Below, piece after piece: positions 34,036-35,127 of a stretch of DNA of 64,000 bases. Position numbers and translations under genes: made by a program. The notes beneath the pieces are model-generated. The model saw only the letters and a list, made by a program, of their open reading frames with translations, was not told the DNA's origin and searched no databases. The stretch is from assembly GCA_964016885.1 (NCBI GenBank), contig OZ024761.1, positions 8,246,001 through 8,310,000 of the forward strand, given 5' to 3'. The DNA is from Eledone cirrhosa (Eukaryota). The number at the start of each line of letters is the position of its first letter. Positions within the stretch are counted from its first letter, which is position 1.

Positions 34036-35127
34036 ATGAATCTCCCACAAATATTTCATAAAAAACCATGGCACATTCTGGTGCTTTGTTTATTGGTGAT
34101 TACATCAACATTCACTTACCTTATAACGTCCGATATATTCCGTGCTGAAGCCCAAACAAAGTTGGATATGTGTTTATATCACCTACACATGCATGTGGCT
34201 AAAGCCTACCGACATCCTTCATTCCGTCTTCTCAACCAGAGCTGTGAGAATGGTAAACAGCTGACAACTGCACAACCTAACATAGACAAAGCTCAATACA
34301 TCATTACAGCTAAGAACAATTGCTCCTCTTCTTTCCCATCAATCCTTATATTGACACCTTTTGATAATTTCTCCAGCTTTTTTAATCAATATATCAATAT
34401 TTTAAAGTCTTTATCTTATCCACACTGCCTGCTACGTATTGCTCTTGGTCTTGATAAATTCGGAAACGTTTCTCCTGAACTAGTTAAAAAGAATATATCA
34501 TCACTTTCCCATCAGTTTCGTTCCATTGAAGTTCACATTATAGATTCCCCAGACGATGCAACCCTCATGTTAATGAAGTATTCCGATAGACACAAAGAGA
34601 CAATGCAGTTCAAGCGACGAAGTAAGTTGGCTCAAATTCGCAACTTTCTTCTGATGAGTGCCTTGCGTGATGAGAAATATGTCCTCTGGCTTGACATTGA
34701 TCTCCGAGAGTTGCCGCATAACATTATCCAGACATTATTATCTGCTCATGTCCCAATTGTGGTGCCATCCTGTATGTACCGAAGTATAGCAAACACTCTT
34801 GACATATATGACCGAAACTCCTGGCGAGAAACTAAAGAATCAAAGGAGTATTTAAATTCCAAGGGGCCCAGGTATCTGATGCTTGAGGGTTACAGGAATA
34901 GATCTTTACGACAGTACCTATATGAATTAGGGCATGAGGGAAATGTGGTCAGTTTGGATGGTGTGGGAGCTTCTTGTTTACTTGTAGATGCTAATGTTCA
35001 TCGCCGTGGTGTAATCTTTCCTCCATATATTATCAACCATCACATAGAAAGTGAGGGCTTTGCACAGATTGCTAAACTGCTCAATTACAAACTGTTTGGA
35101 ATGCCTAATGTCTATGTAATTCATTAA
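34036..35127 (+). CDS. Anp1/Mnn9/Van1-like glycosyltransferase (GT62 family, GT-A fold), type II membrane protein, 363 aa, single coding exon
   Basis: Clean 1092-bp ORF; N-terminal TM helix (WHILVLCLLVITSTFTYLI); ILILTP, LSYP, RRSKLAQIRNFLL, VLWLDID (DxD), YDRNSW, LDGVG..CLLV.A.VHR.G..FP, IESEGFAQIAK...FGMPN.YVIH; AATAAA downstream. Confidence 0.85.
   Translation: MNLPQIFHKKPWHILVLCLLVITSTFTYLITSDIFRAEAQTKLDMCLYHLHMHVAKAYRHPSFRLLNQSCENGKQLTTAQPNIDKAQYIITAKNNCSSSFPSILILTPFDNFSSFFNQYINILKSLSYPHCLLRIALGLDKFGNVSPELVKKNISSLSHQFRSIEVHIIDSPDDATLMLMKYSDRHKETMQFKRRSKLAQIRNFLLMSALRDEKYVLWLDIDLRELPHNIIQTLLSAHVPIVVPSCMYRSIANTLDIYDRNSWRETKESKEYLNSKGPRYLMLEGYRNRSLRQYLYELGHEGNVVSLDGVGASCLLVDANVHRRGVIFPPYIINHHIESEGFAQIAKLLNYKLFGMPNVYVIH

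Follow-up and report, generated by a model that had tools for sequence, protein, structure and literature searches.

What is a glycosyltransferase of the Anp1/Mnn9 family (GT62) doing in an octopus, an animal that, like other animals, has no mannan wall, and by what route did its gene come to be there? The gene lies in a stretch of 64,000 nucleotides of the Eledone cirrhosa genome (assembly GCA_964016885.1, contig OZ024761.1, positions 8,246,001 to 8,310,000 of the forward strand), hereafter the window. Across 153 genomes, of which 34 were animal, one survey found the Anp1 domain PF03452 in fungi alone, and the accessible text of that survey names none of Lottia, Capitella, Branchiostoma and Crassostrea (PMC5225481). 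The sequence-only reading of the window had proposed an intronless, fungal-type GT62 enzyme of restricted lineage, acquired by an old horizontal transfer, by retrocopying or by patchy retention. Our analysis shows that the gene is real and conserved and probably active, and that its story is broader and less exotic than first supposed.

The open reading frame runs from ATG to TAA without an internal stop, as had been claimed, and when the window's 40,512 unmasked bases were shuffled 50 times, no ATG-initiated frame of such length appeared. Its GC content, 39%, is that of the window, which is repeat-rich animal DNA. Host repeats lie on both sides of the gene: upstream there is a fragment of a LINE reverse transcriptase, and downstream the units at 35197-35392 and 35484-35640 recur many times within the window. 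Together with the cephalopod orthologues described below, these features uphold the earlier view that the gene is embedded in host DNA and that contamination is unlikely. The absence of introns holds for the coding sequence; a 5' UTR intron is possible, with a candidate 3' splice site upstream of the ATG (Table 1) whose pyrimidine fraction is 0.76. Sites that reach its own score occur in 20 of 81 background 300-nt windows, and it falls below a stricter threshold that 4 of 78 such windows pass. The ATG is the start common to all cephalopod orthologues; the proteins of Octopus sinensis and O. vulgaris have a 10-residue N-terminal extension (corresponding to 34006-34035) that is absent from the window gene and from O. 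bimaculoides. Elsewhere the window contains 200 N bases and very long simple or minisatellite arrays (15599-19512, 21757-23802, 24083-27244, 37751-40018 and 53190-54353), among them a 3.9 kb AT-only run and arrays in which units of 89, 49, 61 and 45 bases are repeated 23-65 times, several of the arrays deriving from SINE-like sequence.

Table 1. Features of the GT62 locus, numbered from the first base of the window
Feature	Position	Strand	Remarks
Candidate 3' splice site (possible 5' UTR intron), weak	33872..33895	+	140 nt upstream of ATG
GT62 (Anp1/Mnn9) glycosyltransferase CDS, 363 aa, single ORF	34036..35127	+	Paralogue A (cephalopod-chiton) within the lophotrochozoan clade
Predicted type II transmembrane anchor, residues 14-32, after short cytosolic tail	34075..34131	+	Hydropathy only
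Stem, residues 33-99	34132..34332	+	Partly low-confidence, fast-evolving
GT-A catalytic domain, residues 100-363	34333..35124	+	phmmer and Foldseek to 3zf8
R194-R195 = ScMnn9 R209-R210, donor-sugar pocket	34615..34620	+	143 and 145 of 145 clade rows
DxD, D220-I221-D222 = ScMnn9 D236-x-D238	34693..34701	+	Sequence alignment
D259 = ScMnn9 D280	34810..34812	+	145/145 clade rows
E284-G285-Y286 = ScMnn9 E305 loop	34885..34893	+	Common to fungal-like rows, absent from bacterial-like
E338-S339-E340 = ScMnn9 E364-T365-E366	35047..35055	+	T or S at 339 across clade
C-terminal H363 = ScMnn9 Mn2+ ligand H389	35122..35124	+	144/145 clade rows
Three AATAAA hexamers, candidate polyadenylation signal	35143..35168	+	Just past stop; A-rich context
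Host interspersed repeats, downstream flank	35197..35640	.	18 further window matches, 68-94% identity
Exon-like pieces of neighbouring gene	ending ~41868; ~51545-51775; 54904-55102; 57565-57878	+	

The downstream neighbour on the same strand (~41420-57878) comprises four exon-like pieces, their edges read by eye, separated by gaps of ~9.7, 3.1 and 2.5 kb, in agreement with the introns of 2.5-10 kb previously ascribed to it. Its second exon contains the HxHxDH motif of metallo-beta-lactamases and its last exon matches the structure of a short RNase ZS1 (7xgt, E 2.8e-11). We take it to resemble a short, plant-type tRNase Z, and it is possibly another patchily distributed gene.

The assignment of the GT62 protein to its family is unambiguous. 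Anp1 (PF03452) is the sole Pfam family matched at E<=0.1 (E 1.5e-52; 179 bits, the cut-off being 28.8 bits), over model positions 11-262 of 263, and a phmmer search of the PDB returned the Saccharomyces Mnn9 structure 3zf8 (ScMnn9) alone (E 2.5e-33). When an AlphaFold2 model of the protein (mean pLDDT 80.7) was used as the Foldseek query, 3zf8 again ranked first (E 3.3e-23, TM 0.62/0.78, rmsd 2.7), with the next family, at rank 2, following at E 1.4e-12. The top matches by profile, sequence and fold are thus all Anp1/Mnn9, as the sequence-only reading and its proposed Pfam check had anticipated. The predicted strands 241-251 and 254-257 align with ScMnn9 262-283 and would be the counterpart of the Mnn9-specific beta-hairpin. 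Ordinary animal glycosyltransferase families (GT25/COLGALT, LH3, B4GALNT, LARGE) were rejected as alternatives, there being no Pfam match to them and their folds standing at 10-16% identity, far below Mnn9. Hydropathy likewise predicts the type II anchor that had been proposed, the most hydrophobic 19-mer beginning at residue 14 (Kyte-Doolittle 2.13). In the stem that follows, pLDDT drops below 50 at residues 59-85, and just 10 of 38 residues are identical to Argonauta over residues 57-99, as against 129 of 178 over residues 186-363; among octopods identity is 72-84% in the latter region and down to 26% in the stem. Conservation of the catalytic half while the stem drifts is as expected under selection.

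The closest proteins are those of Octopus sinensis (74% identity), O. vulgaris, O. bimaculoides, Argonauta (62%) and cuttlefish (53%), and several cephalopod orthologues bear the automatic NCBI name 'mannan polymerase complex subunit mnn9(-like)'. A profile search yielded 1,981 cluster representatives at E<=0.001, the best 150 of which were used, along with the best 120 of 225 matches to a second profile; 10 of 215 sequences were dropped in the first tree round for their core-profile coverage. A FastTree phylogeny of 377 catalytic domains, each taken from a protein or locus ORF whose coverage of the core profile was 75% or more, was then built from these best-matching relatives, and in it the window gene falls within a clade of 145 rows with support of 1.0, outside the fungal-like and bacterial-like clades. 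The 32 organism-named rows of this clade represent 25 species, all of them Mollusca, Annelida or Nemertea: cephalopods, a chiton, gastropods and bivalves, the annelids Owenia, Capitella and Helobdella, and the nemertean Lineus. These 32 include no cnidarian, sponge, echinoderm or ecdysozoan, and no vertebrate, fly or nematode occurs among the organism-named matches; the other 113 rows of the clade could include further phyla. The clade is thus older than the split of molluscs, annelids and nemerteans, which bears out the claim of an old origin, and its span, together with a separate amphioxus member, overturns the notion of a lineage-specific gene. Outside it are fungal Mnn9-like, other eukaryote-like and bacterial-like sequences and a single, long-branched protein of Branchiostoma floridae (divergent Mnn9-like amphioxus entries are P0132, P0339 and P0340). 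The Atlas clusters with Anp1 domains include ones in which Mollusca, Ascomycota, Zoopagomycota, Oomycota or bacteria predominate, so the family is not specific to fungi. Bacterial-like relatives were found in protein and metagenome searches; a scan of GTDB genomes with the animal alignment and one narrow pattern gave no locus. Distant Anp1-like glycosyltransferases (23-34% identity) also occur on eleven viral contigs (L001-L011), and phage and giant-virus clusters of the Atlas contain partial Anp1 matches.

Within molluscs there are two old paralogues. Paralogue A, to which the window gene belongs, comprises cephalopod genes and one chiton gene (support 100/99), and its orthologues follow the species order of cephalopods and chiton; paralogue B comprises chiton, cephalopod, gastropod and bivalve genes (100/100). 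The duplication predates the divergence of chitons and cephalopods. In the chiton Liolophura three genes (P0216, P0229 and P0263; one A and two B) are each on a contig of 36,638,032 bp, which suggests an ancient linkage of A and B there.

The catalytic apparatus is intact. The DxD and the C-terminal E.EGFA..AK...GMPN..V.H signature noted from the sequence are both in place, as WLDID at residues 218-222, and ESEGFAQIAK at 338-347 with GMPNVYVIH at 355-363. According to the accessible part of the ScMnn9 study, R209A, D236N, D280N and H389A are each inactive, Mn2+ is required, and a pocket-shaping role is proposed for R209, R210, D280, E305 and T365 (PMC3787745). R194, D220, D259 and H363 of the window protein are retained in 143-145 of the 145 clade rows, the gene also retains the equivalents of R210, D238, E305 and E364, and the pocket and catalytic set as a whole, including E284 and S339, is conserved in 138-145 of 145. 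Since this set is conserved and identity in the catalytic half is high, the window protein is very likely an active GT-A transferase. Glutamate at the E284 position is shared by all 74 fungal-like rows and by 138 of the 145 clade rows; among the 110 bacterial-like rows K, R and H are commonest there, and Y286 corresponds to a gap in 109 of them. An N-terminal hydrophobic stretch is similarly present in 112 of the 130 clade members of at least 330 aa and in 0 of 75 bacterial-like proteins. Most of the other active-site residues are invariant in the 110 bacterial-like rows too, so that they do not by themselves fix the donor. The nucleotide-binding pocket of paralogue A may differ from that of ScMnn9 and may have been remodelled, since ScMnn9 buries the guanine with Q124, a position that aligns with D110 and varies in the clade, and since the EDSS motif after strand 2, retained in 123-131 of 145 rows, is lost in paralogue A. 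At residues 138-142 (34447-34461) paralogue A has GLDKF, GIDKY or GIDQS, as against GEDSS in most of the clade (E in 123 and the final S in 131 of 145 rows).

For the origin of the clade we used IQ-TREE on 85 of the 377 rows, under LG+G4 and, in a quick search, under the C20 mixture; position, domain content, coding density and a few names had served to label the groups once the first tree was at hand. The clade was supported at 100/99 (LG+G4) and 98 (C20), with no supported sister group, and the branch between it and the fungal-like rows at 84/95 and 96, respectively. In AU tests, placing the clade as sister to ascomycete Mnn9 gave p=0.027 and uniting it with all fungal-like rows p=0.048, both borderline; the corresponding values were p=0.11 with bacterial-like rows and p=0.29 with amphioxus. 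As a statement of origin, the term 'fungal-type' does not survive these results, the clade lying outside the fungal clade in both maximum-likelihood trees. A fungal donor is disfavoured at most, since the AU values are borderline, the labels are post hoc, and fungal Van1, Anp1 and AnpA are not knowingly among the tree sequences. A eukaryotic source is what the protein points to, because the anchor and the EGY loop are common to the clade and fungi, whereas the bacterial pattern is absent from it.

An early entry by horizontal transfer from some non-fungal eukaryote has, in our estimate, about an even chance of being correct, and we lean slightly toward it over inheritance with loss on account of the restricted range, the long stem branch and the single coding exon. 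Two features expected of horizontal transfer were found, namely integration in host DNA and a restricted range (32 of 32 organism-named among the 145 rows). The strongest competitor, which we rate as a serious possibility at somewhat under even, is vertical inheritance: GT62 would go back to early eukaryotes, the animal ancestor would have had it too, and it would then have been kept in lophotrochozoans and amphioxus and lost in vertebrates, ecdysozoans and others, with the enzyme being the same and no transfer involved. The spread of the family over Ascomycota, Zoopagomycota, Oomycota, Mollusca and bacteria is in keeping with such a history, as are the eukaryote-type anchor and EGY loop common to the clade and fungi and the existence of a Branchiostoma member, whose grouping with the clade is not rejected. 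However, this amphioxus protein lacks E305 and sits on its long branch outside the clade; the union of animal and fungal-like rows that simple opisthokont descent calls for is weakly rejected, a supported branch separates the two in both trees, and many independent losses are required, with cnidarians, sponges, echinoderms and ecdysozoans missing from the 32 named members. The single-ORF coding sequence in an intron-rich and repeat-rich region might speak for a fungal transfer of recent date, for contamination or for a retrocopy of a host gene with introns, but these readings are very improbable in view of the species-order orthologues, the matching GC content, the host repeats on both sides and the rejection of the sister relationship to ascomycete Mnn9. 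The retrocopy suggested by the sequence-only reading is unlikely because three distant homologues of the clade each encode the protein in full, anchor included, within one ORF running from Met to stop (L012, L016 and L019; 3 of 3 examined, a small sample). These are animal-like contigs of metagenome collections from distant parts of the clade, judged genomic by their flanks and collection. On the 3' side of the window gene there is no pure poly(A) run, merely an A-rich stretch.

As to function, we consider the protein to be probably a Golgi type II GT62 enzyme of this old lophotrochozoan clade, acting as a Mn2+- and GDP-mannose-dependent alpha-mannosyltransferase on the terminal sugar of a glycolipid or glycoprotein. 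Its anchor and family predict a type II enzyme of the Golgi membrane; by analogy with characterised fungal members it would draw on GDP-mannose by a retaining mechanism, and it would pass an alpha-linked mannose, with Mn2+, to that terminal sugar. The linkage would by family default be alpha-1,6, as in the alpha-1,6-mannobiose and -triose that ScMnn9 alone is described as making from GDP-Man (PMC3787745), the main alternative being alpha-1,3 on a bivalve-type glycolipid core. The product may well be a short or single mannose cap rather than a yeast-type mannan: a short cap is favoured because animals are without a mannan wall, and a single mannose is more plausible than a polymer because the accessible parts of reviews of mollusc glycomics (PMC6935376, PMC8724618, PMC6994554, PMC6367135) make no mention of yeast-like mannan or of alpha-1,6-mannan extension of molluscan N-glycans. 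With the anchor, the intact catalytic set and the conserved clade in hand, the undescribed Golgi glycosylation activity that had been proposed is likely, and no study of the origin or activity of an animal GT62 turned up in the literature, subscription journals and the supplements of metazoan HGT compendia aside.

Among the competing accounts of function, a switch of donor (for example to a UDP-sugar) or of acceptor class, by which the animal clade would no longer consist of mannosyltransferases, appears rather unlikely. It gains from the nucleotide-pocket positions that are unlike ScMnn9 and remodelled in paralogue A, from a clade core just 36-39% identical to fungal Mnn9, and from UDP-Gal collagen galactosyltransferases being the next fold neighbours; but all mannose-binding and catalytic residues of ScMnn9 are kept, and the likeness to COLGALT1, at 15-16% identity, is at the general GT-A level. 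Another account starts from lipids. Annelids have alpha-mannosylated gala-type lipids, and we know of no enzyme identified behind the Man-alpha1-3-Man linkage of bivalve glycolipids. As reported in the accessible part of one source, bivalve glycolipids contain Man-alpha1-3-Man-beta1-4Glc where the fly and brine-shrimp series have GlcNAc-beta1-3-Man (PMC3606520), and molluscs therefore need some lipid alpha-mannosyltransferase. A GT62 enzyme with a new linkage, making mollusc and annelid glycosphingolipids of the Man-alpha1,3-Man-beta1,4-Glc-Cer type, would supply the retaining mannosyltransferase that such lipids require, and the named range of the gene in molluscs, annelids and nemerteans suits it; we nevertheless judge it unlikely, for the characterised GT62 enzymes for which accounts were accessible form alpha-1,6 links, the residues of the pocket that are proposed to set the linkage are conserved, and the lipid structures come from bivalves, which in our sample carry paralogue B and not A. 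Quite improbable, finally, is a mannan polymerase of the Mnn9/Van1 type, composed of paralogues A and B and building alpha-1,6 chains on secreted, shell, skin or mucus glycoproteins. Both paralogues are kept in cephalopods and chiton, and ScMnn9 is reported to prime and activate Van1 (PMC3787745), but in the tree none of the organism-named gastropod or bivalve rows falls in paralogue A, and the accessible mollusc glycomics reviews mention no polymannan; a complex prediction for the two Octopus vulgaris paralogues scored 0.00, which is evidence neither way.

An alpha-mannosyltransferase of the kind we favour would be a concrete candidate for the orphan alpha-mannose linkages of invertebrate glycobiology. 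Because the clade is conserved and catalytically intact across molluscs, annelids and nemerteans, an unassigned Golgi glycosyltransferase activity is likely to be present in much of the animal kingdom; the gene is also a candidate for an ancient acquisition marking Lophotrochozoa. The fullest version of this scenario, in which GT62 entered the lophotrochozoan stem by transfer, stayed single-exon, expanded into several paralogues and constitutes the missing Golgi alpha-mannosyltransferase for the mannose glycans or glycolipids peculiar to molluscs and annelids, is speculative and as a whole unlikely; if it were true, an animal mannosylation pathway would have been built on a family regarded as fungal. 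The surprise is lessened in that copies already stand as 'mnn9-like' in databases and the origin may be patchy retention. What we describe is an undescribed lophotrochozoan GT62 subfamily whose genes are already public under similarity names: no paper joining mnn9 with octopus was found, and the mollusc papers containing mnn9, as far as their text was accessible, use yeast mutants or cite yeast work.

These findings place the window protein among several known systems. With ScMnn9 (PDB 3ZF8) it shares the type II architecture, the GT-A fold, the DxD, the C-terminal metal-binding His, the equivalents of R209, R210, D280, E305, E364 and H389 and the predicted beta-hairpin; in contrast, it is ~30% identical, belongs to a separate clade, has a hairpin shorter by about six residues, does not keep the Q124 position, and comes from a host without a mannan cell wall. 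In the trees the gene is neither nested in nor sister to the fungal Mnn9 orthologue group. The AnpA protein of A. fumigatus, in the accessible account a GDP-Man- and Mn2+-dependent alpha-1,6-mannosyltransferase, acts alone in vitro, adding single alpha-1,6-mannoses to an acceptor other than an N-glycan (PMC9769593), the same mode as proposed here; it differs in serving the fungal galactomannan pathway, and the comparison is one of described activity. The NCBI 'mnn9-like' proteins of Octopus, Argonauta, Sepia, Haliotis and Pecten are orthologues or paralogues of the window gene, and their names are similarity labels. The B. floridae protein (XP_035670100.1) is likewise an animal type II member of the family, 37% identical over 267 aa, but it has Ala at the E305 position in addition to its isolated placement, and represents an independent acquisition or a relic. 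Bacterial Anp1-domain proteins have the same catalytic core residues at ~36% identity, whereas they lack the anchor (0/75) and the EGY loop and form a clade of their own (99/94). They are often fused to GT32 (PF04488) or GT2 domains, with GT32-Anp1 fusions seen in the bacterial-like P0069, P0070, P0284, P0286, P0287 and P0294; in yeast mannan synthesis GT32, the Och1 family, and Anp1 families act in sequence. Finally, the yeast M-Pol I and II complexes are heteromeric, with a partner of the Van1/Anp1 kind, and act downstream of Och1; cephalopods possess a second GT62 paralogue.
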